A stretch of 63,879 nt of DNA, filler included, from Sphacelaria rigidula (lineage: Eukaryota), in NCBI GenBank assembly GCA_964200075.2. It is 10 parts of 10 records of this genome, joined end to end, with 100 filler letters (N's around TTAATTAATTAA, not from the genome) between each part and the next. Parts side by side here need not be neighbours in the genome. Positions count along the whole stretch, not along the records: positions 44,789 to 51,085 come from CAXNAA020020944.1; 9 more parts are not named here. The stretch is one strand, 5' to 3'. The translations under genes were made by a program, and so were the position numbers. This document shows, piece by piece, positions 6,300 to 58,262 of this stretch; position 1 is the stretch's first letter, and every line of letters begins with the position of its first letter. The notes under the pieces were generated by a model, which saw nothing but the letters and a program-made list of their open reading frames with translations, had not been told where the DNA came from and ran no database searches.

Positions 6300-6399
6300 N
6301 NNNNNNNNNNNNNNNNNNNNNNNNNNNNNNNNNNNNNNNNNNNTTAATTAATTAANNNNNNNNNNNNNNNNNNNNNNNNNNNNNNNNNNNNNNNNNNNN
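6300..6399. other. Artificial contig linker (N-run + TTAATTAATTAA + N-run); also at 12699-12798, 19098-19197, 25496-25595, 31894-31993, 38292-38391, 44689-44788, 51086-51185, 57483-57582
   Basis: The same 100-bp spacer, with stops in all six frames, occurs nine times. The intervening pieces fall monotonically from 6299 to 6297 bp, i.e. size-sorted unplaced contigs. Confidence 0.98.
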
Positions 6400-11900: not shown

Positions 11901-14405
11901 TGTGTTATGTGGTGCTTTCCTCGTTATGCCTAATATTTTCGTACACATGGCTGTCTCTCTAGAGGTGCATGGTTAGAACCCTGCAATTCTTTTCGCTATA
12001 GTTGGTGATCATGGCCCCTGGGTTTGGCCTCATTGCTGTCTGGCTTCACGTGTTGAGTTGAGTGGACCAATGGGCCCGGCCTACAGTAACCCGAATGGTC
12101 GCCTGCGGCGTCGGAACCCAGGAGGATAGCAGTATTTTTCCTCCTTTTTTTTTTTTTAATCATTACTATTCTTCCTTAGTTTTCTTATTTTGTCGTACGG
12201 CGTCTATGTGAGTGTTCTGAGTCCGATTTTTAACTTTTTTCACCCTATTTTGGGTACTTAGCCTGTGACCGCGGAAGGCGTCCGCATCAGATGCCCAGAG
12301 CAGAGTACTGCGCAGATATTGGAACGATTTTTGATGTGAAGACAACGACAAGATAACAACACACATCATAGTACTTCTCGGATATTATGTTTTTTTTTTT
12401 CACCCCTCTCCCCATCCTTCCTCTGGTCCCGGTTTTCCACATCTGTTTTGCACAGTCCATTTCTCCATTCTCGATCACAGATGGCGAAATGAGAAGGGGA
12501 TAAAGACATGTTAAAGGTTCTCATGTATTATATGGAAGGAACGTGATGAGCGCCCAAATGTTAGAAATGTTTCTCAGGAGGAGAAACGGTGCTCTGTCTC
12601 CAAAGGGATGCGTGGTCGATGGTCAAACGGCAAATGACCAAGACAAACGACAAATGAGTACGCTCCCCCCCCCTACCCCCCACGCCACCCCCGCTCCCNN
12701 NNNNNNNNNNNNNNNNNNNNNNNNNNNNNNNNNNNNNNNNNNTTAATTAATTAANNNNNNNNNNNNNNNNNNNNNNNNNNNNNNNNNNNNNNNNNNNNGA
12801 TCTAGCTCGACTACCATCATGGTTACCGCAAACAAACGCAAGCGCGCACAAAAATCGGTAAACTGGTTGCCTAGCTTACGCAGCGAATGGCGTGTTTTAC
12901 AGCGTCATCGCCAACCGACGCCAACCCCATCGGGGGTCCGTCCCTTCAAAGTCGGGACGGAGCACGCCGGGTTCTCGCCGGACCAGGGTGGGGGGCGGGG
13001 GTGGGGAGTCCCGTCGTAATTAGCGAAGTCAAGAAAGCACTCGCTGGACATCTTGGAGCACTGGTATTGCAGTCGTCGATATTGATTTTAAGTCGTCAAT
13101 CCTTTCATCACCCCGAAACCCCAGTAAGACGCTGAACGGATGTGCTTTTGCGGGGGAGAAGGGTTTGGAATATTCTAGTGTTATTGACGGAGAGATGACG
13201 CCTACACGGAGCAAGCGGCTGCCTAGCATTAGCCGTGCATTGCAGCCATTTGGGAAGAGTCCACGGCCAGCAGCATGATTCCGTCTCTGTACAGCAAAGC
13301 CGTAGCGATGATCTTGCCATCAACATATCTACACACGGAGACGTTCAAAGATGTAGAAGAATGATTTATGAAGAAAGAAAATGGTCACCCTCCTCCCTAA
13401 CCATGGCCAAAAGGCTGTTGTACACCTGCCAGCGAAACATAATTGTCTTTGCATACAAATGCACTCTGTGGTAAAATGCGCCATCCGAGGGAGCTTGAGG
13501 ATTTCAGGAAAATTTATAGAAGAATTTCAGACGTTGAAACTTCGACCGAGCGTTGGATTTCTGGCAGATTCGGAGTTTCGTTGGTACTTGTGCTTGAGGT
13601 GTTTCGGGCTTAGGACAACAGTTGCGACAAATATGCGTGCTGCGAACCTTCTCACGAGTAATCATTCGGTATTCCGCGCAGTTCATTTCACAAGCTATGC
13701 ATGTCGCTGAGGGGCATGCAGTATTGTGAGTGGAACAAGAACACTTCAACATTATTCATCAACTGAACAAATGAAAGACACTCGTGAAATATGTGTTGCA
13801 CCCACAAAATAACCGCAGCATCTGCTGAATGAGTGTTACCACATTATATACCACGTATTGACAGTAGATAATATCTCCAATATCTAAATTACACGATTTC
13901 AACATGGGAACAAAGGACAGTGGCCAAGGAAGGATATGTCTTGTCTTGGCCACTTTAGAGTACAGAGGTCAGTGCAATTTTGCAGCGGCGCACAGAAGAG
14001 ACATCCCGGACCCGATTCCACTCGCTTGTGCCGAGACGTCGCAGCATCGCTTCATTCCTATACATGTACCGCATGTGATGCGGAAGAACACAAGCGGGAT
14101 AGTGTTTAGCATAGCTACGAACACGTTGCAAGTAATTCACCAGAGCTGCCCTGCGGTAAAAGCAACTCAACATGGCGAGGTACACTTGCTCGTCTCTGTT
14201 TTCCTTCCGCGTAGCCTTTCCCTGGCAAACTATATACCCTATCGTGGACCGAAAAGGTACGCGTCGACTCTATTGATTGTTTTGATTGATTTGATCTGAT
14301 CGATCCGGTCCGCTACCGATCCAGCCATGATGGTCCCAAGACGGACCTCCCCTAGATAAATAAACGGAAACACGAGCGGACGGAAACTCGAGAAAGGAAA
14401 AATAC

Positions 14406-18420: not shown

Positions 18421-19411
18421 GTCCATGTCACACCTTATTTTGCATCTATCTGTGGATTCGTGCACAATAGACAGGGCTGCGGAATAACCGCGGTATAGTC
18501 AGCTTCGATCCGTCCCGTGAAGAAGAGTGCACGAACGTTGTGGGGTCGTCAACGGGAGCTCCCCGATACCGAACCTGGCTCTAGCTCTACATACATCTAC
18601 ACGCTTTACTTCTTCGTCACGGGTTCTAGCCTGGCCGTCTTTCCAATCTTCCGTTCAAGCAATTTGCATCCTTGTTCCTATCGTTCCCTTGCTCTGTTTA
18701 TTCAGGTACATGCCTCGCATGTCGGTCTCACAGGGAGGGCGCAGTTGGGACGGCGCAGTCGTCCCAGCCCGCGTTGGCTGCTAGCTCCCCTCTCCCGAAT
18801 CTGGTCCTTTGCTCGCTCGCCGTGTCTCTATCCACGCGTTTGCAGCGTCATTCACAACTCTGGGTAAAACTCCGTAGCTAGAGCATTGAACCTCGAGCTC
18901 AACACTGTCGACGATGTCCATCGACTAGTTTGTATATTGGGTCCCCACCAATACAGTACGGACAAGTCCAAAGGTCATGTCGCCCTCCCATACGCGTGCG
19001 GTTGTGTCATTTGTTTGCTTGTTAGATGTGGTTTCCTCGACGCAGCCATCTTCGGTCGGGGGGGGGGTGTAGTCATGATCATGCATGCCATTTGAGANNN
19101 NNNNNNNNNNNNNNNNNNNNNNNNNNNNNNNNNNNNNNNNNTTAATTAATTAANNNNNNNNNNNNNNNNNNNNNNNNNNNNNNNNNNNNNNNNNNNNATC
19201 TGTGTTTGTGCTGCAGTACAGTGAAACAAGACATGCTTCATGTTTTAGTTCTTCGGCTGATTTTTAACGGGCCCTCAGTCTGTGCAGGGTGCCGGTCTTG
19301 AACGCTCGGACATGATCGCCCTTCGCGCAAATAATTAAATTTACTACAAAATTATCCCCATGTATGGGTGCTGTGCCATTTTCTTGTTGTGTGTTTGGTT
19401 TTCGCTCTTGA

Positions 19412-24989: not shown

Positions 24990-26600
24990 TACGTAATGGG
25001 TGAGTCATGCATACATTGGTCAACACACTCGCGTTTTATAATCTCCATCACAGGCATTTTATTTTCCCTTGTTCAGGTTGTTCAGTTTACCAAAACATCA
25101 CGGCAAGCGTCTGCTCCCAGTCTCTGGACACCAAGATACATGCGTACCGAACACACGAGTTCTGAAAAAAAAAAAAAAACACTCCCTGAGTCCATTTTGG
25201 ACCACTTGGGGACTAGCCGGTCGTCGAGGATCCTACAAGTGTACCGCCCCAAGTCATTGCTATTTGATATTTTCGCTGCATCGAGCCGCTCCCGATCGAC
25301 ATGATCAGCAAATTAATGGTTCTGTTTTTTTAATGTTCTAACAATTCATTGCGCTACAGCCGAAAACACCTTTTAATCCAGGGGGCCCCATATCGGAAAA
25401 TGGCTGCACCACCGCCCCCCCGGGCCGCAAAAACCTCATTTTGGGGGTTGAAGAAGGGAGGGGGGGGGGGGGGGGTCTTGTTTGTTTGTTGGTTTNNNNN
25501 NNNNNNNNNNNNNNNNNNNNNNNNNNNNNNNNNNNNNNNTTAATTAATTAANNNNNNNNNNNNNNNNNNNNNNNNNNNNNNNNNNNNNNNNNNNNCCCCT
25601 TTCGCTTTACGTGAAGATTTTGCCTGACAAAACCATGCACTTTTTTTTTTGGGGGGGGGGGAGTGTATCGTAGAAAGTGTCGACCGTTCTCACTTATGAC
25701 GGCTTTCAAAATGGTTACTTTTCTCCCTATGGGATGGGCTGCATATAGACGACTTTGCCGTCAAGCCGGATTTTCCATTATGGTCATGACAACTGAACCA
25801 TAGATAACGTAGGCACAACTTGCGGGCTTTTTGCTTTGCTCATGGTCTATGCCGTTTGGCTGACCCCTCATATGTTGCTAATATAGGTGTACAACGCCCT
25901 TAGTGTTGTTGTGGAACACTAAGGACAGACATCAGCAGCATGCAGTAGACTGTGTTGAGCGGAGAGTGATGGAAACCTGACCGTTTATTGCCGTTGTATC
26001 CAGCGAAAACGTACAGCACACGTACTGACTCTGAACGCAATTGACCGCAGGGTCAAAACCGGTCAGGGATTCTCCGGGACTATTCCCTGAAAAGATGCCA
26101 AACACCCGCATGTTGATGGAAAACGACGTTTCGAGTAGTGAGAAAACAGCTATTCTGAACCCCAAACGTGGCATAATCCATCTGAGTCCATCTGAGGAGG
26201 GTTCATAGTACAAGGTTGAACATATAATCACTTGGGGAAATCGGACAATGTTTTCAGTAACATTACAAAAAAAAGGGTCCAAGGAAGGGTATATACAGTA
26301 ACGCCCGAGTGAAAAAAGCACACAAAAGTGGACGTACAACACCTTCTTCGCCGGTTCCACCATTGAAATGCCTCGTCAAAGATTACTGCGCACACTGCAC
26401 ACATGCGTATCTCAGATAAAACAGATGCGAACATACTGTGTACCAAAGACTACGGGACAAAAATCAATGGATATCGCATTTATAACCCAACCCAGTCCAA
26501 CCCCACTTAACTCAAGTCAGCATACTATATAATCATCGTTATCACCACCACCATCACCACCTATAACGACAAAACACAGCCACTACACGCCAAAACTCAC

Positions 26601-31309: not shown

Positions 31310-33075
31310 GCGGGGGGGATGTACTCATGATCTTGCGTACCGTATCCGTGAGACCATTAACCCCACATTCCTACAAAACCAGGGCGGAGCACGCCGGATT
31401 TTCGCCGGACGAGGCTCGCAGTCAATCACCAACCGCGAAGCGCCGTGATGTGTTCGGCGAGTCGCACGAACGGTGAGCTGCATCCTGCTGAGACTGTTCG
31501 GCCCGAATCCTACCGATTATCTTGCATTTGGATGATGGCCTACAATGAGTTGCTTTTTTGTCTGGCATCCCAACTTCTAGCGACAGCGATGGCTCACACG
31601 TTGCCTCATGTGTGTCTCACCATGTAAACACTACGTAGCATGACCATCCCCTTTGCGCGGAGTTGAGGTTCCTCCACCCCGCACATACGATCTAGCCTAC
31701 CCCCATCGGGGATGCCGCAGAAAAACGCAAGCAAAAAGACCCCCCCCCGTTAATGTGGTTGTCAAGCATACGCATTGAGTTTTACAGCGTCGTTGCCAAC
31801 CGACGCCAACCCTGAAAAGGGGGGCGGGGGGGGGGGGGGGGGGGGGGGGGAGGGGGAAGAGCAAAAAAAAAGCGGCCTTTGTTTGAAGGCCCGNNNNNNN
31901 NNNNNNNNNNNNNNNNNNNNNNNNNNNNNNNNNNNNNTTAATTAATTAANNNNNNNNNNNNNNNNNNNNNNNNNNNNNNNNNNNNNNNNNNNNAAGGTCG
32001 GGACGGAGCACGCTGGGTTTTCGCCGGACCGGGCTCGCACTCAAACCACCAAGCGCGAAGCGCCGTCGTGTGTTTGGCGAGTCGCATAAAGGGTGAGCTG
32101 CACCCTACTAAGATTGTTCGGCCCGAAGCGTTTTGACTAGCTTACATATGGATGACAGCCTGCAATGAGTTGCTTCATTTTCTGGTATCTCAACTTCCAG
32201 AGACAGTCATGACCCACACACCACCTCATGGGTGTCTCACCATATAAGCACCACGTAGTAGGGCCGTCACCTTTGCGTGGAACTAAGGTTCCCCCACCTC
32301 GCGCAACGTGATCTCGACCACCATGATGGTTACCGCGAAATAAATGCAACCGCGCTAAAACAATCGGTAAACTGGTTGCCTAGCTTATGCAAGTAGTGAC
32401 GTCTCTTAGAGCATCGTTGCAAACCGACGCCAACTCCATAGGGGTTCCGTCCCAACAAAGCCGGAACGGAGGACGCCGAGTTTTCGCCTGACTAGGTTGA
32501 GGGATAGGAGGAAGGGGGGGGGGGGGATACTCAGATCTTACGTGCCATAGTCATAAGACTGTTGATCTCGCATCCCTACAAAGCCGAAATGGAGCACGCC
32601 GGCTTTTCGCTGGAACGGAATCGCAATCAATCACCAAGCGCAAAGCGCCGTCGTGTGTTCGGCGAGTCGCGCGAAGGGTGAGCTGCATCCTGCTAAGATT
32701 GTTCGGCCCGAAGCGTACTGATTATCTTGCATTTGGATGACAACTTCCAATGAGTTGCTTCATTTTTTGGTATCGTCACTTCCAGGGACAGCCATGGCTT
32801 ACACACTGCCTCATGAGTGTCTCACTATTCAAACACTACGAAGTACGATTATACCCTTTGCACGGAGTTCAGATTCTCCCACCCCGCACAACATGATGAT
32901 GCAGCTCTATCACCATCATGGTTACCGCAAAATGTTTTCGGTAACCTGGTTTCCTAGCTTACGCAGTGAGTGGCGTGCTGTACAGCGTAATCGCCAGCCG
33001 ACGCCAACCCCTTAGGGGGTTCGCTCCTGCAAGACCGGGACAGAGCACGCCGGGTTCTCGCTGGACCAGGCTAGA
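31310..33075 (+). repeat. Clustered copies of a very abundant unclassified repeat, spanning two contig ends; related copies near 9260, 12800-13010, 20090-20180, 57585, 60130-60650 and 61250
   Basis: Recurrent core ACGGAGCACGCCGGGTTTTCGCCGGACCAGGCTCGCAATCAATCACCAAGCGCGAAGCGCC, with units starting at (G)n-GTACTCATGATC. Confidence 0.9.
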
Positions 33076-37112: not shown

Positions 37113-39489
37113 GTAAGTGTATGAACTGGATCGAAAAGGCCGGTGCATGGTCCTGCTGCCGAGTGGTCGCCTTCTTTAGGCATGCGTCCAATGAAAGCCC
37201 CATATTTGAAGAGGTAACTGTACTCTTGCGTCCTTCTGACTGCACTGCCTGTTTGCTCGCGATCCGTTTTTCGTTTTTTAGGAGTAATGTAACGGTTGTC
37301 TGCTTTGTCATGACAGTTTAGGGATGTACAATATTTCAATATTTTAGAACGGGGCTGCTTTCTTGGTCCCTCATCACCTCGCGTTGTGAGTTATCGGTGT
37401 CGCTCCAGGCTGAAATCACCATCAACGCACGCGTAAGCCGTCGGACAAAACAGGCACGTTCTCTGAGACACCCCCAAGCATCGCATTCATGGCAAGAGGC
37501 ACTAGTGTTGGGGCCCCAGTTTGTGCTAGAAAAGACGAACATTGTTCATTGTTCGACGTAGTCCGACGGTGACGCGCGCGGGATGGAGTCCAAGTACGTG
37601 GTATCATTATAACAGGGTAGAAAGCTGGAGATATCTTTTGATGCCGATGGACCACCTTTGTTTCTCTCGCCGACGTTGGAATTTCCCGCCCCGTTCTCTT
37701 GGTAGCGTAGGCAACGTCGACGAGGGGACATGATATATCTTGTTGTTTGGGTTTCCTTTAAACCCAGTTTGGTGCGACACTGTCGTACCGCACTGTGCTG
37801 AACAGTTGTGCACCCTTGAACCTTCGCACGTCAAATGACACGCGTCCGTTTTATGTACTCGGCAATTGTCGTGGAAGATCCAAGCTGGAACTTCCGAAAA
37901 GAAAAAGAAAAAGTACTGGACAATGACTGCATGTCACTCGATATTTTTGGCACACGATCCCCCTGTCCGCTACGAGTCGTTTCGTGCTTGACTGCGTTCA
38001 TCGAATCTCGGCTACTCACCGTCTTCCCGTCCTGTCCACCCTGTGACCACATGTGGTGTCTCGGTGGACAGGCCTTTTGCGAGACCCTCCCGACATGTTT
38101 TTCGCTCCCACACCACTTGTGTTGTGCAGCAACCTCTTAGACCCAGTTTTATGGCAGGCACGACTCTCGATTTTTTCAAAATCGGGGGGTCACGATCTCG
38201 TAACGTTTTCCCCCATTTTTCGAAAAATATCGGGTGAAAACCGTTCCGAGATCGTGACTCCCCCGAGTTTTTTGAGGTGTCGTACGTGCATNNNNNNNNN
38301 NNNNNNNNNNNNNNNNNNNNNNNNNNNNNNNNNNNTTAATTAATTAANNNNNNNNNNNNNNNNNNNNNNNNNNNNNNNNNNNNNNNNNNNNCACCCCAGC
38401 TATGCCGTCTCCGTGTGGTGCCAGATTTTCATCTCCGCCTGCTTGAGCCGCGCCCCCGCCAATGCCGGACATGCTGTAAAAGTCGATCGATCCTCTGCGA
38501 AGCGCGCTAGTTCGTACCTACTTCTCCCTACTTTTGCTGCATATACTAGTCGGCCGCTGCTAGATGAATACTACTTGTTGCTGGTGATGGTATCTGTACT
38601 CGTGTGTGCGGCAACCTAGGTGCGATGGCCAACTTTTCTACTGGCAGCGGCACTGCAGCTGGGAAACAAGGACAAACACCGTACCGTTTTTCTGTACGTA
38701 CGTCCCACATTGTCAGAATTCGTAAACGCCTACGCAAACACCGCTTTCATACTGAACGGTACATTTATCACCAGCCATTGCATCGACGTTGGGTCAACAG
38801 GCGACAGCAGAACCGCCGAGCCTGACGCAGATCTTGAATTAAACCCAATTCTGTTACGATTATTTTTATTCCATGCTCAGTTTGCAGTGCGAATCTCGTG
38901 CCACTCGACATGCCTGCGTAGGCAGGACAAATCGTGAGCTCTTCCACATCTTTCGAGCAGCTTTCGTCTCCTGCGACATGCGAAAATTGATGTGCTCTCA
39001 GACGACACGAGAAACGCCGAATCTGCCGTGAGATTCTAAATTGAACTCGATTCTGTTAAGGTCATTTCATACAAATGGGTCACTCCTTAATCGATCGCGA
39101 GGTCAATGGTCTTATGACTATGGCATGCATGATCATGAGTACACCCCTTAATCGATCGATCCCAAAAGCTGACTTTAGCCCACGCGCCATGCTACGGTAG
39201 GGGTTGCGCATTTGGCCTTAAATCATTCTCATTCAGGGGCTCATGAAGTTGGGAGCTACACGGGAATATGGATCAGGACGTTCCCCTTTAACATGCAATC
39301 GGGATATCCCGAGCTCATTGAAGTATCGAGTATGGCGCGCTCTCACATATATCATGAGTCGTATTTCGGCTGAGATGGAGGGCTTCTAACAGTTTGAACC
39401 TCTGAAAATATTTATACACCCCTACCGTAGTACCACAGACACAGTGTGAATCTCGTCCCCTCAATGTATTTTTGCAAGGTTATGATCTG

Positions 39490-44300: not shown

Positions 44301-45124
44301 AACGGTACCCGGTAACCCTTCAGTGTATGAAATTTGAACATTATATTTTGATGGGTGTATGGTTTTGAGTGAGCGAGGGGGGGGGAAGGCGTACTCATTT
44401 GTTGCTTGCCTTAGTCGTTTGACCACTGACCACGCATGTCTTTCGAGACGGAGCACCGTTCCGACTCCTAATAGAGACACCTTCGACATTCTGGCGCTCA
44501 TCACGTTTCTTCAAAAGCTCATTTCGTTTCTTCCATACATTACACAAGAACCTCTTACATATCTTATACCTGTTTCGCCGTCTCTGGCCACCATCCATCT
44601 CCTAGTATAGCCATCGTTTTCTCCCTACCGTCTAATGCATCGAACGGTTTCATGACACCTTTGTTCACGTCTCGCATTTCCCCCTCTANNNNNNNNNNNN
44701 NNNNNNNNNNNNNNNNNNNNNNNNNNNNNNNNTTAATTAATTAANNNNNNNNNNNNNNNNNNNNNNNNNNNNNNNNNNNNNNNNNNNNTGTTTTTTTTTC
44801 CGCGCTCGGCTTGGTTTTCCTCCCTTTTCCCCCCCCCCCCCCCCCCCTTTTTTCCCTGTTCCTTCTTTTTCTCAGAGCGTGTTTCAGTTTCGTTTTTCTT
44901 GGATACGTCTGTCATGAGACCACGGCTGGACCCCTGGGGGGTCAGTTGAAGTGCGACAATCAATCAAATCAATCAATGGTTGCTCGTGTGGAAGTGTTGG
45001 CTCACATTCGCGTTGCGGTCAGAACGCAAGTTATTGGCCCCCTCTCTCCTATGTCATTGGCTTCCCATCGAAAATATTTTCCGCAAGCACCCTCCTCTTG
45101 CCCCCATGTGTTGCGCCCTACCAG

Positions 45125-46232
45125 CTTTGGTGTCCTGTGCTTCGAGGTGGCCTCCCGGACAGAGCCATTCAAGGGAAAGAGACCTGCCCAGGTTATCGGA
45201 GCGGTACTCTACAAAGAAGAGCGGCCTCAAATTCCAGAATGGGCGTCTGCGTCGCCCGATGTTGTTCCTCTGATGGAGCAATGCTGGAGCCAAGACCCTG
45301 CGAAGCGCCCCAAGGGATTTGGACCCGTAGTTCGGACGCTGGCGAGTGTGGTATCGTGTGTCGGAGACCCTCGCAATCATAGCGTTGCTGCCGTTCATGC
45401 CACGTTGTCATCAGGTGCCAAGCGAGCTAGGGTAATGTGCGTGAGAACAGCACCACCTGCGGTTGGTGGCGGTGTTGACGTGTCATCGAGTCGGATGAAC
45501 CCCGCGTCCCAACCGGCTGGAGCCGATCCCGAGGCCACTCCTGATGAATGCAACGAGCTGCCGCCCGCAGTGTGCAGCGCGGTGTGGGGTAGTGGTAGGG
45601 TGCCGGTTGATCGTAGCATACGAGTTGCTACTGAGATGCTCACCGAAAATGACGTTGTAATGAGTGTTGATGCCGACAACACAATTTCCGAAATCAAGGA
45701 GGTGGTTCGAAAGCGGGAAGGAATCCATCCTGACGAGCAGTGTTTGACCTTCGCTGGCCGTGTGCTGGAAGATAACAGGACGGTGAGAGACTGCAACATT
45801 TATGGCGGGTGCACCCTCCACCTGGTCTTCAGGCGTTGCGCGGTTGATCATAGCATGGTTGATCGCGGCATGAAAATATTTATCAAAACGCTCACGGGTG
45901 TAACGTTAGTGATACATGTTGACCCCGACAACACAGTGTTTGAAATGAAGCTAAGGATTCAAGACCAGACTGGAATACCTCCTTCCCAGCAGCGGTTGAT
46001 CTTCGCTGGAAAACAACTACCGCACGGTGACACGGTGAGAGACTACAACATATCGGAAGGGTGCATCCTCCGCCTGGTCCACAAGTTTCGCGGGGGCAAA
46101 CCCGTGATCCTTTTGTACCCGTCAGCCCCCCTAGATGCCACAGTGGCGCTGAAGCTGAGCCCGCTCTGGAGCCTCTCTGCACTGTATCCAAAACTTCCAA
46201 GCAAGGTGCGGCAAGATATCTCAGACCCCAAG
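45125..46232 (+). CDS. Exon A of a kinase-Ubl-Ubl-unknown-domain fusion gene: TKL kinase subdomains IX-XI, linker, Ubl1 (about 45618-45839), Ubl2 (45870-46097), start of the KPVIxLYP domain
   Basis: (S)[15 protein letters not shown]...RPQIP...[14 protein letters not shown] is a kinase C-lobe. [10 protein letters not shown]...[11 protein letters not shown]...FRGG is 76 aa, 43/76 identical to canonical ubiquitin by manual count. Acceptor CCAG| (phase 2), donor AAG|GTAAGC. Confidence 0.93.
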
Positions 46233-46492
46233 GTAAGCCCGCTGCTTTGGATTCATACTTCCCGCGTTGCGGGTAGCGCAACAGCAACTCTCCTGACGCT
46301 TGTTTGTCGATGCCTGCGTCGAGCAACCCTCAACCCTTGACTTCCTTCGCACCGTCGAAGCCACGCCTTTCATTGTCTCACGTTGACCAAGCCATCGGTG
46401 ACCAGCTAGATACATAGGTATGTACATATACATTTACATGTTTGAACGAAGCTCTCAACAACTTGCTCGATGTTTCACTCGATGAGTTCCAG

Positions 46493-46682
46493 GCCGTCGT
46501 GGCTGGCGGCCAGCAGTACGAGTGGAGCGTTCACGCCAATCCCGACGGCTCTCTCCAAGATCTGAGCACCGGCAGGGAGTACCCGTACCTCTTCTGGGAA
46601 GCAGACTCTTCCGATGGCTGCGTGTGCAGCACCTTTGGGCTGGACGAGACCGAGTCGTTTTGCGTAGCGGGTGACGCAGCAG
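46493..46682 (+). CDS. Exon B of the fusion gene (WSVHANPDGSL...GREYPYLFWEA)
   Basis: Acceptor TTCCAG| (phase 0), donor CAG|GTACTA (phase 1); in frame with exons A and C. Confidence 0.9.
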
Positions 46683-47298
46683 GTACTATGTAGCTGCCGC
46701 CGCTCCGCGCACAACGTGATGCAATTTATGCAAGGACGTGCACACGTTGCTCACGTTCGTCCGTGAATACGCTTCTACCGAACCAAGGACGTAGATGCAC
46801 ATACTTTAGCGAGGAAGATGAATCCACCCAGCTCCTTACCCGTACAAAAAAGACACTTCGAAGGAAACTCCAGAACTTGTTTTGGAAGACGGGGATCTTC
46901 GACCGAAGGGAGTAGCGTGGTGTCATCAAATCGCTCTCAACACTTCCAAATACCTTCAGAAAAGGCTGAGAGTTGTAGTGAGCGTAGACACATCGTTCAA
47001 CGCCTTCTGTCGTAGCTTGTGTGCTCCCGTTGTCTTCAGGGCAATGTACCCCATTTCGCTGCGAATGTACGTACTTTAGTTTCGTTATTGTGGCGAAGTG
47101 TTGCCCAAATTTTAGTTCATGTTCCGAAATATCATCTGTATCCTACCCCGATCGAGAGGAGATTTCAAACCTGGGGCACGCCGAGCGCCTTCTGCGATGT
47201 TTGATGCCCTCTTAACACCTATGACGTGCCCCTCCCACGCCGAACGCAATCCTCCATTGTGACGCACATATAGTATTCTCCCCCGCGAAATCCGGAAG

Positions 47299-47500
47299 GT
47301 GTGTTCCTCGACCTTGCCCTGGAACGCCTTGGCCTCAACATGCGGGAGCGCTGCGATATGGTGACGTACTGGCTGCCGCAGCTGGAGGCGTCCAACTTTA
47401 GCGCCATCTACTTCGTAAGGACAGCGCTTTACGAGCAAGCTGCCCGCCTGACCATCGTGCCTCCCCCGGACGTCACGATCCGTGTCTTCATGGCCTTCAG
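47299..47500 (+). CDS. Exon C of the fusion gene (FLDLALERLGL..RERCDMVTYWLPQL...PPPDVTIRVFMAF)
   Basis: Acceptor GAAG| (phase 1), donor CAG|GTATGT (phase 2). Confidence 0.9.
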
Positions 47501-47928
47501 GTATGTCATGGCTGCCTTCACGTGTGTTTGACTGGTTGCGCCGTACCAATGGGATGTCGTGACTCGTCTTTAGGTACGAAAGCGGCATGGAGGACCCACG
47601 AAAGAACCCTCTTATATTTTTTTGAAAATACAAAAATATGATACATATATTCGGTGCTTGGTTGCCTCACTGAACCTCGGCCGGTTGTCAACGATTCAGG
47701 AGCCGCTGCTGATGGTTGGTAAACTCTAGTTGCCATAGCGGCTATGCCATCGTTTCAATGCCAATGTTCCGGGATGAAAACGCCTTGTAGAATCGAGGAC
47801 TCACTCCAATCCAGTGGTCACATGCACTGCCATATTTTCATATATATATTTTTATCATGGCCACGTTCGATTCTAAAGCCATTCGGCTTCCGCACTAAAC
47901 TTATCCGTGTACGTTGTTTCCTGTGCAG

Positions 47929-48055
47929 AGGTTTGGACGCGTACGACGCGGAGCTGGATACTGCTAAGGTGGACGAGCTGCAAGCGCCCGCCAGGAAGGG
48001 ATTTGTGGTCGTAGAGTGGGGAGGCATGAATCTCAACGGGGTCGCGCAGGACTGA
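47929..48055 (+). CDS. Terminal exon D of the fusion gene (...ARKGFVVVEWGGMNLNGVAQD*)
   Basis: Acceptor CTGTGCAG| (phase 2), TGA stop at 48053-48055. Confidence 0.9.
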
Positions 48056-49167
48056 TGTAAAAACGTGCGAAAAGTTGTTCTTGTGCGCGACGGATGTCCG
48101 TGGGGATCAAACGGAGCAGTAGTGATAGCATAGGTGTATGGTGGTTTTTGGCTCTTGGGGAATAACGGTTATGCCGTCAGCTTAGGGGTGGATTTTTGTG
48201 TGGAATTGTTTTGATCCGAGAAATTCGAGGGATCTTTCTGTGTTCTAAGCTGGCAGATACGGCTCAGGTGTAGAGACAAGAGGCTGAGGTGTGAGTGTCT
48301 TGGTGCTGTTTCAATTTGTAACTCGAAGCATTTTGCGGCACGCGGTCATGTAAGACAGATGATACATCGCAACGATATTCTCCGGGTTGCACTGTTCATG
48401 AGGGGCTGCGGGTGATCGGTCATGCTCGTGCTCAAAGATGATATGCATGTGCATGAGACGTGTACTTGAATGCAGAGGAGTTGGGTGTCGAAATTGGATT
48501 ATCATATTTGGGGTAATTACGGATAGAAGGGCTGTTTTGCCATTCGGGAGTTTTTCCTTGACCCGTATTAAGGACTAATGCCGAGATAGCTCCCCCACAA
48601 AAAGTGCACCGGAGACCATCCGAAAAACCGGCTGCGATCCCTCTATTGGGCTCGTTTGCAGCGATTTCACCCACATGAAAGGCGTGTAGCAGTCTGAAAT
48701 CAGCTATAATGCCCAAATGAGCCGCGTCGTGCAGCGCGAAACCAGCTCTAACGGCATTTTTTATCATCGCCTCCGCGCACGTTTTTGGCCGGTTCGGGGG
48801 GGGGCTATCTCGGCAGCAGTCTAAGGTATACCCGATATCATGCTTGCAGAGAGGATCCAAGGAACGGGCAAGATTTGAGATGTGGCTCCAATTCTGACGG
48901 AGTTCGATTATGTCAGCTTCCCCCACCTATTCGGTGGGCTGCCTGTCAAGTGTTCGTGAAATAGTGTTTATAGTGTGAATTTTGTGTGTATGATCGGTAT
49001 AATATAATACACACATGGTTTTCTTGTCAATCCTGGCCTGGAACGGCCACCCGCTTATCCCGACGATGTAACTGGAACACGTGAAATCCGATTAGGGGGG
49101 TGCGCGGATTAATTTGATGAGGCAGACGGAGACGGGAACGGACGAAACACGAAAATATTGATGTGCT

Positions 49168-49437
49168 GAGCAACCCTACGGTAGGGGTTGCACTTTTTGT
49201 TTCTGGGTCACTTTTGTGTGGGAGCCAAAATATAGGGCTTACTGTGCAATCCAAATCTCCGAGGACCGGACACCCAGAAACATTATGTTTGCACGCAGGA
49301 GCCTTTTCGTGAATCGGTATCATTTTCAGTGTGTTTCAAGTAAAAATGATGCGGATTCTCAAAATAATCCGTCCAACACCCCGAGCAACCCCAAGAAACG
49401 TTTTCGCTAGAAAAGTACAACCCCTACCGTAGCGTTC
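49168..49437. mobile_element. Divergent Sola-like MITE
   Basis: tgct|GAGCAACCCTACGGTAGGGGTTG ... CAACCCCTACCGTAGCGTTC|tgct; the right TIR is slightly truncated. Confidence 0.65.
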
Positions 49438-50337
49438 TGCTGAGAAGCAAACCCACAGTTTGGCGACTTTTGCATGCCGTAGCTTCATTCTTTGGGGATG
49501 GAAAGCAGAGATGTCGGGGCCATGGAACAGTGAGCTGACCAGAAGTTGTGGCGGATTTGGTTTTCTGTTTTGCTTTTTTTTCCAAGCTTGAAACCACGGG
49601 CTTAGTTCCCCGGAAAGGTTCAAGCAGGATCACTAAATCGTTGACCAAGGGGCTGGGCATGTGGCGTGTTTGGGAGCCGAACGAAGAACGATGATGAGGC
49701 AAGTTGCCGCTCAAGATCTGTTCATAAGCAGCCTTTGTGTCTAATGAGAGGGAAGGGGAGGAAATCGTCCAATGCTGTTGAAACGTATACACCACCTACT
49801 CGGGTTACGTAGCCCCGAGCGGAGTACGCACTTGCTTTGTGATCGGTAACACCGGGGAGAGATGGACTGATCTCATGAGACCACGCTCTCGTCCCGAGGG
49901 AGGAGAGGGGTTCAAAGAGTGAAAAAAAAAATGTCATCATGGCTATTTGTATGATGTTACTTCATCCGGAGCCGCCCCAAATTGTAGGTGATAGCAAACG
50001 CCAACTAGCCGAGTGAAATTAAGGGCTATTCTGAGAGCTCCTCATCGAGCTCAAAGACATGGCAAAAGTAGCCGAGTTAACGTATGAAATACAAAATATA
50101 CAAGGGCAAGAGTTGGGATATAACAAATGCCCCCTTACGTTCCCACAGCTCTGAGGTGCTTCATAACAGATAGCGTTTTGGAAACAACAAAGCGATCTCA
50201 GCTGCTGGATCGCTTCGTCCAAACCCCTTTGAGTTTCTCGAAGACGAATCCAAGTAACGAACAATAGAGAGGGGCTAATCTCAAATGCGGTTTGCTCCCT
50301 TTTATCTCCAACAATTATCGACAACAAATTCACTTAA

Positions 50338-50435
50338 CCCTAAGACCGCGAGATTAGTCTTTCTGGACCACGCATACTTTTTTTCACTTGAAATTGATAC
50401 CGATTCAACAAAAGACTAACCTCGCGGTCTAAGGG
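50338..50435. mobile_element. piggyBac-like MITE (98 bp)
   Basis: TTAA|CCCTAAGACCGCGAGATTAGTCTT ... AAGACTAACCTCGCGGTCTAAGGG|TTAA. Confidence 0.88.
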
Positions 50436-52239
50436 TTAACGACAAATAGGGAATCCTGGAAAATTGAAACGATATTTTTTAATAGGAACAAACAAAGATC
50501 AAAATTTGAAATAATAGTGGCAGATGATACGCGTTAATGGCGTCTATTTCCCTCCCGAAAAGTGGAATGGCTTAGGTCCGAGACAGGCGAGGTATTTGCC
50601 TCCGCATGTACCGGACACGCTCGGCATTTTCTTCTTGCGTCCTGGCGAGGTAGACCGAACCAAGACGACCCGGTATTACGCTGAGGTGGACAGGCACGAA
50701 GCTGAGTGCTTTGAGGGACGGAAGCAGACCAAACCGCACCCCGCCCGTGATGAGTGCACACGACGACAACTTAGATGTTCTGTGGGATGGAGCACTTAAA
50801 AAACCAGCACGAAGCAACAGCAGCTGTCCAGCTAGCGATGCATGCGTGAACCCATTGATGGATTTGCGATCCGGCGGTGTAACGACAATTCATCACGGCT
50901 TGCTTGTGTCATTGAAATATCAACACAAACACCCGACCGCCCGCACAGCAGCAGCAGTAGTGTGGTGCAGTGTATGTAGCAAAAACAGCGCGTACACGTT
51001 GTTGTTGAAATCTCAGACAACAACAACAAATTGTGAGAATTGAGGTTTAACTTCGAGATGAGGCTCAAGCCTAAAACAGTGCTTTNNNNNNNNNNNNNNN
51101 NNNNNNNNNNNNNNNNNNNNNNNNNNNNNTTAATTAATTAANNNNNNNNNNNNNNNNNNNNNNNNNNNNNNNNNNNNNNNNNNNNCTGCAACCTCAAATT
51201 TGGACGTTATAGACCTTGCACGAGGTCTGGCCACCCGTGTGTGTTATGGTAGGCTCAAGAAAAGGAGGGTTAGCTTCCCTATCCCATGTCTATGTCCGGG
51301 CTGTGATATGGTGTCGGAGAAAAGACACGAAAAAAATAACGGTAGAGGGAGGAATGTAGAGAAAGAGAAGAAGAAGGAAACTCAAGTGGAACGGGAAAAC
51401 ACATCGTTACTGAGAAAAAGGAGGAAATACGGTTGGGGGAAACATGAAAGAAAAAGAAAGTCCAGCTTTGGTACATCATGTCTATATCCATTTTGTGCGC
51501 TTCTGGGGGGACCCAAGTTGGTTTATTTAGGTTTTTGCATGTCTGCTGTGTCTGTCGGTCCGGGACTTTCTTTGTCAGGTGGCGGTCCCTGGTATATGTA
51601 CGGTGACGGCCCGTATAGTCGACGTCTAGGTTTTGGTGGCTTGTTTGTACAGCGCCGTTGCCACTCGACGCCAATCCAAAAGTCTGGAGGAGGGGAGCGA
51701 TGCCGGTGGTGAAGTGGGGCAAGTATGAGGCGCCGATCCGATGGAGCAAGGGAGCGCGAGACCATGGAAGAATGCAGAGGCCAGAGATGGATTCCGAAGG
51801 ATAGTATACTCCATATGTGGCCACGTCGAGCGTTCATTCGCTGACAACTTCGGATTGATAGTGGTCGATTAACGCATTGCGTAATTTTGATTCTGCATGA
51901 GGCTTAGGAATCATTGACTTCGAGTGAAAGCGCAGTAATGCGACTACTGCCCGCCTGCAGTGATTTGACTGAGCAGGCATCATATTTGCCTCAGTATTTG
52001 GCATATTTTATTTCTTGTTTAATTTATATTTCGACTAGCCATATGATGAGAGATTATCACGTATGGTTTTGTGGGCAAATGTCCTGGTTAAAAGTTTCGT
52101 GAGGTTAAAACCTGTTTTTTGACCCCTAATTATTTTACCTGGTTTTGGTATTGTTAGTCATATTTTATCGCATTATTCAAGTAAGCCTGTTGTTGGGTAT
52201 TTAGGAATGGTTTACGCTATGTCATCTGCCTGAAGCCAT

Positions 52240-57100: not shown

Positions 57101-58262
57101 CTTCTGTGTTTGGCCAAGTGAAGCGCCGAAAGACCACCTTTGTTTTCCAGACTGCACGACGCAAGTATTCAAAGGGGTGGCGTACTCAGTTGTTGCGTGT
57201 GTCAGTCGTTCATCCATTGACCACGCATCCCCTTCGAGACGGACCACCCTCTTCTACCTATCTGAGTGGGAGTGCATCGTGAAACCGAGCGTAAACAAGT
57301 AGGCGTCGACATCCCGAGATGAAGTTCCATTACTTGTGGTGATCACCACGAGAGAATTCGTTGTGCCGTAACATCACTTTCACTCTGCAATATCCATCAA
57401 ATTTTGCTGTGGGGGGGGTTCGCGGGAAACCCGCTTTGGCAACGCCTCGGAACTCGCAACTGCTCTTTAAATGTGCTCACCGNNNNNNNNNNNNNNNNNN
57501 NNNNNNNNNNNNNNNNNNNNNNNNNNTTAATTAATTAANNNNNNNNNNNNNNNNNNNNNNNNNNNNNNNNNNNNNNNNNNNNTGGTCTGATGACTATGGC
57601 ATGCATGATCATGATTACACCCCCCCCGTGTTTTGCTTTTTTTCTTCGTGGGTTGTCGACGACGGAACATCTCAGGACAGTTTTTTTTCGGAACTAAATC
57701 GCCAATAACTCACGCAGAAGAGAAAAAAACACGGGGGGATTTTCGGGGTTGTTTCATGAACGTCCTGTACATCGTGTCAAAATTTCATCGAAAAAGATCC
57801 AAAATTGAGCCCCAAGACTCGCGTGTCAACATTCCCGTTCGAATCTTCGGCGGCCCAGCCTGTATGGAGGATTGTGTGACGTGTTTGTTCTCGGTCATGA
57901 ACCCATGGATTGACGTGATTCGGCGGAGACAGGAGATTGTGCTAACTTTGTTTACTCGGTACATAACCTATCGATAATGAGAAAAATAATCATAGCTGGG
58001 CGCGATTCTACAAGGGAAAAATATATATATGGAGATGGTAATCAACGCAGATAAATGGACATTATATTTGCTGTTGCGCCCCATGCCACCGCAAAAGACA
58101 TGCGGGGCGCGCTGCACGGCTCTCGACACGTGGCGCTCCACACTCCACACTCACGTATGCATCAACTCGTTGCATTGCCTCGCAGACTGCTGCTGAAACT
58201 ACAACTTCAGCGTGCCATGACAGATAACAAATATTTGAACATAAAATGAATGATGGGCCCTA

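Follow-up and report, generated by a model that had tools for sequence, protein, structure and literature searches.

Proteins fused in line to the C-terminus of ubiquitin or SUMO are cut from it after the terminal Gly-Gly whatever residue follows, proline excepted, and it is by cleavage after Gly-Gly that ubiquitin-ribosomal protein precursors and polyubiquitin are processed; we know of no earlier class of natural fusion precursors with SUMO-type partners. Here we describe a gene of the brown alga Sphacelaria rigidula, found in a stretch of 63,879 bases from assembly GCA_964200075.2 (hereafter the window), in which a protein kinase C-lobe is followed by two ubiquitin-like domains (Ubl1 and Ubl2), the second of which ends in Gly-Gly and abuts a domain of 217 amino acids (aa) from an unnamed family, here called domain X. 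The part of this gene that recurs in other eukaryotes, a ubiquitin-like domain (Ubl) with Gly-Gly and domain X, has in our estimate about an even chance of being a natural ubiquitin-fusion precursor, in which a cut after Gly-Gly would free X and the front part would keep its Ubls.

The closest described system comes from a survey of ubiquitin fusions in algae (Sibbald et al. 2019, PMC6332867), which includes a 'ubiquitin-IMP' class whose partner resembles bacterial 'integral membrane proteins'. According to the passages on this class, such fusions are spread patchily over 87 further species, and fungi, which have the ubiquitin mid-protein, account for most of them (63 of 88 species); stramenopile members, forms with one to three non-identical ubiquitins and stand-alone forms are described as well (PMC6332867). 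The same passages make no mention of a kinase fusion, brown algae, SUMO-type partners, the junction or structure. The term 'Ubiquitin-IMP' was found in the literature only in this survey and in one unrelated paper. Among the matches listed for a literature query combining brown algae with ubiquitin fusions and kinases, none was relevant; a search by the motif of domain X returned irrelevant papers only, and the Phaeoexplorer preprint brings up ubiquitin only for E2 losses.

The Sphacelaria gene lies on a contig of 6297 bases (44789-51085 of the window) whose first base comes directly after an artificial spacer, so the kinase N-lobe is off the contig, as a preliminary description made from the DNA alone had held. 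Joining 45126-46232, 46493-46682, 47299-47500 and 47929-48055 gives a frame of 1626 nucleotides (nt), with 541 codons before the stop codon, free of internal stops and with GT..AG at all three introns; base 45125 completes, as its third base, a Ser codon split by the preceding intron, whose acceptor AG lies just before it at 45123-45124. The first of these exons, exon A, by itself carries one frame that runs from the kinase C-lobe through the two Ubls to residue 45 of X, so that the linkage of kinase, Ubl and X is independent of splicing.

At its start (aa 1-63) exon A matches the Pfam family PK_Tyr_Ser-Thr (PF07714) at 29.5 bits, with a cut-off of 23.1, over positions 190-250 of the 258 in the profile. 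The C-lobe motifs of kinase subdomains IX-XI are present (DVYSFG ... CW..DP..RP, with DVYS read from upstream transcript letters), and the closest solved kinase is Arabidopsis CTR1 (E 4.6e-9), followed by EGFR, ZAK, ILK and FAK. These matches fit a Raf/CTR1-like kinase of the tyrosine kinase-like (TKL) type, as had been proposed, the assignment being made from about 65 residues of the C-lobe, with the exons for the catalytic motifs (the VAIK Lys, HRD, DFG and APE) off the contig. Pfam gave no match in the linker of about 110 aa that follows. Beyond it the Pfam ubiquitin family PF00240 matches exon A in two stretches (E 3.1e-42). The first, Ubl1, has no terminal Gly-Gly; it is also matched by TUG-UBL1 (180-233), Dsc3_N (174-221) and Rad60-SLD_2 (207-239), and Ectocarpus Ubls match it by tblastn at 45678-45821, while the Pfam family TBK1_ULD matches the Ubls at E 5.3e-9. 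The second, Ubl2, aligns without gaps to positions 1-76 of ubiquitin (E 1.3e-23; 43/76 identical, counted by hand), keeping L8, I44, K48, V70, R74, G75 and G76 and carrying the changes K63E, L71H, R72K and L73F, so that its tail at 71-74 reads H-K-F-R where ubiquitin has L-R-L-R. Ubl2 ends in FRGG (aa 321-324), and Lys-Pro-Val-Ile-Leu-Leu-Tyr-Pro follows immediately as the start of domain X at aa 325; the residue after Gly-Gly is thus Lys, not Pro. The order of parts given in the preliminary description (kinase C-lobe, degenerate Ubl, Ubl with terminal RGG, conserved C-terminal domain) is borne out by Pfam, by the ubiquitin alignment and by a profile of the X family.

Contigs of four public runs (X1, X4, X5 and X7) were aligned to 44790-48700. 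Those of X1, X4 and X7, which come from two studies, each carry all three exon joints, skipping 260, 616 and 428 bases at GT..AG boundaries; in all three the exons are covered 5 to 15 times as deeply as the introns, and the middle of intron 3 (47541-47802) has zero cover. In X5 the cover is flat over exons and introns, and none of the three joints is seen. From this pattern we infer that X1, X4 and X7 are transcript data and that X5 is DNA. All four exons and 1417 nt beyond 45122 upstream are held by a single X4 contig of 3594 nt, an X7 contig extends 1410 nt upstream of 45122, and contigs of X1, X4 and X7 depart from the genomic contig at 45122 into 626-1417 nt of other sequence. The last 30 of these letters in X1 read in frame to ...DVYS and continue with FGV on the contig, which is kinase subdomain IX; because the Ser codon of DVYS splits exactly at 45125, the exon coordinates that the preliminary description had given are right to the base. 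Its four phase-compatible exons form one open frame, its three junctions (46232/46493, 46682/47299 and 47500/47929) are all found in the spliced contigs of X1, X4 and X7, and the same contigs run up to 1417 nt towards the upstream exons that it had expected. The 30-letter upstream end was not found in the window at up to 3 mismatches.

What the contig carries is thus the 3' end of a genuine gene of the alga, one that is spliced and transcribed. The NCBI model (CAM9964639.1, 'unnamed protein product', here P0001; 45950-48055), which exon B matches at 100% identity, is shorter, at 227 aa, with its start Met within Ubl2 and a donor directly behind GGKP that removes 43 residues of domain X. The joint from this donor is in none of the run contigs, and both the contigs and all homologues favour the longer form. 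One could read the gene as an artefact or pseudogene, arising from chimeric assembly, read-through from a neighbour or decay of a copy, and the shortness of the 6297-base contig, the annotation of just a 227-aa product and the possibility that a kinase-X model in Cladosiphon (see below) is itself merged would all suit such an account; it is nevertheless highly unlikely, given that a single exon and frame links the kinase C-lobe to the Ubl pair and the start of X, that the spliced contigs of two studies agree, and that X keeps 50/52 consensus positions.

As far as the sequences tell, eukaryotes usually place domain X after a ubiquitin-like domain. Paralogues in which a coiled-coil N-terminus leads to a Ubl and then directly to KPVILLYP occur in Ectocarpus species, Nemacystus and Ascophyllum, and the partners of X in brown algae are either of ubiquitin type (ending ..LRGG) or of SUMO type (Rad60-SLD, ending ..Q-x-GG). 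In the Agaricomycetes Cylindrobasidium, Ceratobasidium, Mycena and Irpex a different N-terminal region precedes Ubl, Gly-Gly and X. We located the first residue of X by script in 252 domains and detected Ubls with phmmer. Gly-Gly stands directly before Lys-1 of X at 17 of the 23 junctions with a Ubl detected in this way and at 4 more where the domain in front is a divergent or truncated SUMO-like one, and at none of the 225 that remain, which are bacterial with a few protist-like sequences (0/225); counted by eye with short fragments included, the figure is 23/32. No junction has a linker between Ubl and X, and Gly-Gly is the best-kept feature across Ubls that otherwise differ greatly. It is this comparison between homologues that supports the view that the Gly-Gly/Lys junction acts like a conserved processing site.

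On this basis, the Gly-Gly would be the site of a cut like that made in polyubiquitin and in ubiquitin-ribosomal precursors, the enzyme being a deubiquitinase or, for the SUMO-type paralogues, a SUMO protease, and X would be freed as a soluble protein. The Ubl would stay with the N-terminal partner, which varies: Sphacelaria has a kinase in this place, Ectocarpus a coiled-coil and the fungi a different domain. X would be the constant and probably the functional part, with the Ubl as a cleavable handle for expression or regulation.

Several observations weigh against cleavage. Gly-Gly is missing at 6 of the 23 junctions (LSLR at three, SGR at one and RGA at two, these last in one fungal model), so cleavage is not obligatory for X, and fragments add the Gly-Gly-less junctions LG, SAG and SGV. 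The LSLR form is found with an intact X in P0016 (Ectocarpus siliculosus), P0020 (E. fasciculatus) and P0070 (Ectocarpus sp. CCAP 1310/34); since it is kept in three Ectocarpus records, X can evidently be retained without a cleavable site, and this paralogue line offers a natural 'uncleavable' control. The junction counts are not independent events, many of them coming from paralogues and orthologues in the Ectocarpales, and in most members the Ubl is internal, unlike the N-terminal ubiquitin of classical fusions. In Sphacelaria, the altered tail of Ubl2 (L71H, R72K, L73F) means that recognition by a deubiquitinase is not assured, and the word 'transcribed' rests on the splice pattern and the contrast in depth, because the kinds of the runs were unrecorded and had to be guessed ('RNA?'). 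Finally, a single-chain AlphaFold model of the Ascophyllum Ubl-X has a predicted template modelling score (pTM) of 0.83, with the predicted local distance difference test (pLDDT) dipping modestly, to 81, at the junction block; such a model would fit a compact, possibly uncleaved two-domain unit. A prediction of the complex between X (aa 80-306) of Ascophyllum P0026 and its own Ubl (aa 1-79) scored 0.12 against a mark of 0.34, with controls not run, and was counted neither way.

These points make an uncleaved multidomain kinase the alternative to be taken most seriously, and we regard it as possible though less probable than processing. On that account the Ubls would be integral adaptors, X a C-terminal ligand-binding or regulatory module and Gly-Gly a relic of the cassette. 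It would explain why X stays conserved at the 6/23 junctions where Gly-Gly has gone, and it sits well with the single-chain model, with the changes at positions 71-73 of the Ubl2 tail and with the TBK1_ULD match; moreover, X terminates one bacterial BlaR1-type M56 membrane protein, at the site where sensor domains are found. It would leave unexplained why 21 junctions in brown algae and fungi keep Gly-Gly despite divergence into ubiquitin-like and SUMO-like forms, why Gly-Gly appears at 0/225 of the clear non-Ubl junctions and why the zero-length linker is universal, known integral Ubl domains usually having no Gly-Gly.

If the junction is indeed processed, the fate of the two products can be pictured in further ways. 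In the first, the kinase-Ubl1-Ubl2-Gly-Gly product would be a modifier precursor, to be activated by E1 and conjugated to targets in the manner of ISG15 or FAT10, with X as a removable cap and the kinase covalently tethered to its targets. The tandem Ubls with Gly-Gly on the second only, the retention of L8, I44, K48, V70, R74, G75 and G76 in Ubl2 and the constancy of Ubl-Gly-Gly beside a variable N-terminal partner are what such a scheme would lead one to expect; R72K and L73F, on the other hand, fall at positions important for recognition by E1 and deubiquitinases, X is conserved far beyond the needs of a cap, and no dedicated E1 or E2 came to light, though no search aimed at one was made. 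We consider it improbable, and consider equally improbable its general form, a system in which the cut frees X and unmasks the di-glycine so that whole effector domains become modifiers attached by E1 and E2; conjugation of the kinase-Ubl-Gly-Gly product is purely conjectural.

In the second, which the preliminary description had raised in calling the Lys an N-degron residue, the Lys-1 exposed by the cut would send X into rapid turnover by the Arg/N-degron pathway, Lys being among the primary destabilising residues that ubiquitin fusions classically expose. Yet Lys-1 and Pro-2 of X are each 98% conserved across the family, including in bacteria, where they are internal, and in a model of X residues 2-7 form the first beta-strand at pLDDT 98 and not a flexible N-terminus. 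Because Lys-1 is conserved in bacteria and opens that strand, we take it to be part of the X fold, not a residue selected as a degron, and the idea that this Lys-Pro start evolved as one has to be given up; a short-lived X of this kind is very unlikely. Nothing points to the defence role that had also been suggested.

Whatever happens at the junction, domain X has a wide distribution of its own. Its motifs, KPV(I)YLYP ... YLFWE ... YWLP ... PD..R.FM ... VEWGG, run through the family, and of 52 positions conserved to at least 85% across 254 family rows the Sphacelaria domain is identical at 50, so that by this measure it is intact. A protein search with exon B matched 23 brown-alga proteins, the whole X of an Ectocarpus homologue matched 100 proteins, and a profile of 75 sequences reached 9027 cluster representatives (clusters at 50% identity) at E <= 1e-3 and 5098 at E <= 1e-30. 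By these searches X is a very large and unnamed family, which agrees with the earlier view that the C-terminal domain belongs to no named family: Pfam gave no match on X, whether in separate exons or in 12 X-bearing proteins (E up to 1-10), NCBIfam gave nothing on X in 8 X-bearing proteins, and the X-family profile had 0 matches at E <= 1 among PDB sequences. The sole Pfam lead on X, PG_binding_2 (E 0.2), was dismissed. Matches to X in the ESM Atlas were only unnamed bacterial clusters (0.93) and one Basidiomycota cluster (0.86).

An AlphaFold model of the Ectocarpus X, computed from a 75-row alignment (pLDDT 92.1, pTM 0.88), predicts a beta-rich core with two long helices. Foldseek of this model against the PDB gave 0 matches at E <= 1e-3, and VIA-align against 48,161 representative chains gave a best Z of 3.5, with none of at least 5. 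In these comparisons of a predicted structure no solved relative of X was found, which falls short of proving a new fold.

The bacterial X proteins are of two kinds. Short ones, of about 205-220 aa, have X behind a signal peptide or lipobox; in the longer ones, which are surface proteins, X mostly comes last among the modules. Other Pfam modules were found on 30 of the 108 top representatives: dockerin on 9, Big_14 on 10, SH3_3 on 3, choline-binding on 2 and CarboxypepD_reg on 2, with single cases of serpin, BlaR1-M56, ankyrin and DUF285/LRR, and ubiquitin on one fungal protein. One Anaerotignum X protein has S-layer homology. X relatives are encoded by 477 prokaryote genome stretches, of which the best 80 are mostly from gut Oscillospiraceae and Lachnospiraceae (Clostridia), and the RefSeq name of those looked up is 'hypothetical protein'. 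Among 33 flanking open reading frames (ORFs) of 12 bacterial loci there was no recurring partner gene, PlsY alone being shared by two closely related loci; the neighbours are unrelated housekeeping genes. Because its settings are lipoproteins, cellulosome dockerins, cell-wall anchors and a BlaR1-type end, the bacterial distribution suggests that X acts outside the cell as a ligand-binding or enzymatic module. At the 52 conserved positions the polar residues are Lys, Asp, Glu and Arg, and four Trp are conserved too; since Cys, His and Ser are all missing from this set, X is unlikely to be a self-cleaving domain.

In a tree of 82 X domains, a branch with a Shimodaira-Hasegawa-like approximate likelihood-ratio test (SH-aLRT) support of 96 sets off a group of 19 rows that holds the brown-alga and fungal X together with one unplaced Ubl-bearing and two Ubl-less protist-like sequences. 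Because the algal and fungal domains share a supported side, one ancient fusion explains the cassette as well as several would, and we do not claim convergence through independent fusion in algae and fungi, the tree allowing a single origin. Two low-GC eukaryote-like records, P0073 and P0092, have X with no Ubl (MKR/KPVILLY.. and ..PPLR/KPVILFY..) on a long branch beside the brown-alga sequences. Some fungal models hold tandem units of N-terminal region, Ubl and X, two in P0106 and three in P0116 (Gly-Gly in one unit, GA in two), and Ubl-X genes can be clustered, as on one contig of 461,563 bases of Ceratobasidium sp. AG-I (P0072, P0106 and P0077). A kinase was found in only 1 of the 10 X matches longer than 503 aa: P0109 of Cladosiphon okamuranus (EP00903_P006595; 824 aa) is a membrane-anchored kinase, unrelated in sequence to that of Sphacelaria, placed on the last X exons only and with no Ubl. 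It may be a second kinase-X association or a merged model.

Table 1. Features of the window, with the Sphacelaria gene in 5' to 3' order
Feature	Position	Strand	Evidence
Artificial spacers	6300-6399, 12699-12798, 19098-19197, 25496-25595, 31894-31993, 38292-38391, 44689-44788, 51086-51185, 57483-57582		
Splice acceptor AG of the intron preceding the first exon on the contig	45123..45124	+	sequence; spliced contigs diverge there
Exon A, kinase C-lobe to first 45 aa of X	45125..46232	+	X4 record 9 and X7 record 21 cover the whole
Protein kinase C-lobe, subdomains IX-XI, aa 1-63	45126..45314	+	PF07714
Linker, about 110 aa	45315..45644	+	no Pfam match
Ubl1, degenerate, about aa 174-239, no C-terminal Gly-Gly	45645..45842	+	PF00240, second stretch
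Ubl2, 76 aa (aa 249-324), ends FRGG	45870..46097	+	PF00240, best stretch aa 251-320
Gly-Gly/Lys-Pro junction of Ubl2 and X, zero linker	46092..46103	+	sequence; same register in homologues
Domain X part 1, aa 325-369	46098..46232	+	family-profile hmmsearch aligns aa 325-535
Intron 1, 260 nt, GT..AG	46233..46492	+	joint in X1, X4, X7
Exon B, domain X part 2	46493..46682	+	frame and spliced contigs
Intron 2, 616 nt, GT..AG	46683..47298	+	joint in X1, X4, X7
Exon C, domain X part 3	47299..47500	+	frame, spliced contigs, tblastn
Intron 3, 428 nt, GT..AG	47501..47928	+	joint in X1, X4, X7
Exon D coding part, end of X (VEWGG motif), stop at 48053-48055	47929..48055	+	frame, spliced contigs, tblastn
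3' untranslated stretch	48056..48602	+	same spliced contigs (X4 record 9, X1/X7) reach 48289-48602

The window consists of ten pieces of about 6.3 kb, which are separate small contigs and not chromosomal neighbours, divided by nine identical artificial spacers (44 N, TTAATTAATTAA, 44 N). Searches by tblastn with the X-family queries P0109, P0003 and P0016 found nothing in the nine pieces other than that of the gene and no match in 48056-51085, where there are 10 ORFs of at least 90 aa. Separate unspliced contigs of X1 and X7 give introns 1 and 2 a low cover, some 7-35% of that of the exons, which looks like partial intron retention or pre-mRNA; retention of intron 1 would stop the frame at 46340. 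The spliced X4 contig differs from the window at 45681, 45843, 45861, 45980, 48057, 48170 and 48401, positions at which X1 and X7 agree with the window, and these single-base differences are probably strain or allele differences. The gene is flanked on either side by dispersed or simple repeats (poly-C/T and CAAT repeats): over 44790-45051 and 48458-48700 the summed contig depth of the four runs ranges from thousands to more than 600,000, with many loose ends.

Domain X merits attention in its own right as a widespread, unnamed and structurally unmatched family, present in thousands of sequence clusters from gut Clostridia, other bacteria, brown algae and mushroom-forming fungi. If its junction with the Ubl is cut, the cassette would add a further widespread class of natural ubiquitin- and SUMO-fusion precursors to the ribosomal ones, and the Sphacelaria gene would yield a kinase ending in a free ubiquitin-like di-glycine; if it is not cut, the product would be an unusual kinase with an uncharacterised C-terminal module.

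Like the ubiquitin-ribosomal precursors Ub-eL40 and Ub-eS31 and like polyubiquitin, the cassette has Gly-Gly abutting its partner with no linker, and the start of the partner enters a beta-strand, as in polyubiquitin. It departs from Ub-eL40 and Ub-eS31 in that Ubl2 is only 43/76 identical to ubiquitin and lies internally, behind a kinase, in that the partner is not ribosomal, and in that Gly-Gly has been lost in some copies; the near-identical N-terminal ubiquitin that marks a classical ubiquitin-fusion precursor is not found in the Sphacelaria gene. ISG15 and FAT10 share with it tandem Ubls of which only the second ends in Gly-Gly, and ISG15 has a C-terminal extension that is removed, whereas the Sphacelaria product, with a kinase in front and a folded domain of 217 aa behind, is not a small free-standing protein of two Ubls. 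A kinase and a Ubl also share one chain in TBK1/IKK kinases with their ubiquitin-like domain (ULD), to which the TBK1_ULD match relates, and in plant PI4K-gamma, but the Ubls there are followed by no Gly-Gly and conserved domain and are not thought to be cut. Bacterial X proteins such as WP_209341951.1 are 40-49% identical to the Ectocarpus reference X and have the same KPV(I)YLYP start and VEWGG end; unlike the algal and fungal proteins, they are secreted or surface-anchored, with no Ubl and no Gly-Gly before X.

The nearest likeness is to the ubiquitin-IMP fusions, whose partner has bacterial homologues, whose spread among eukaryotes is patchy and whose ubiquitin in fungi lies mid-protein (PMC6332867), as in the X cassette. 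That partner is likened to integral membrane proteins (PMC6332867), whereas the bacterial relatives of X go by the name 'hypothetical protein'. Going by these descriptions, the ubiquitin-IMP class, to which IMP1-3 of B. natans belong, is probably the X cassette. The architecture that the preliminary description took to be uncharacterised is therefore so only in part: Ubl-Gly-Gly-X recurs in the brown algae Ectocarpus, Nemacystus and Ascophyllum and in four genera of Agaricomycetes, and it is the attachment of a kinase to this cassette that is new.

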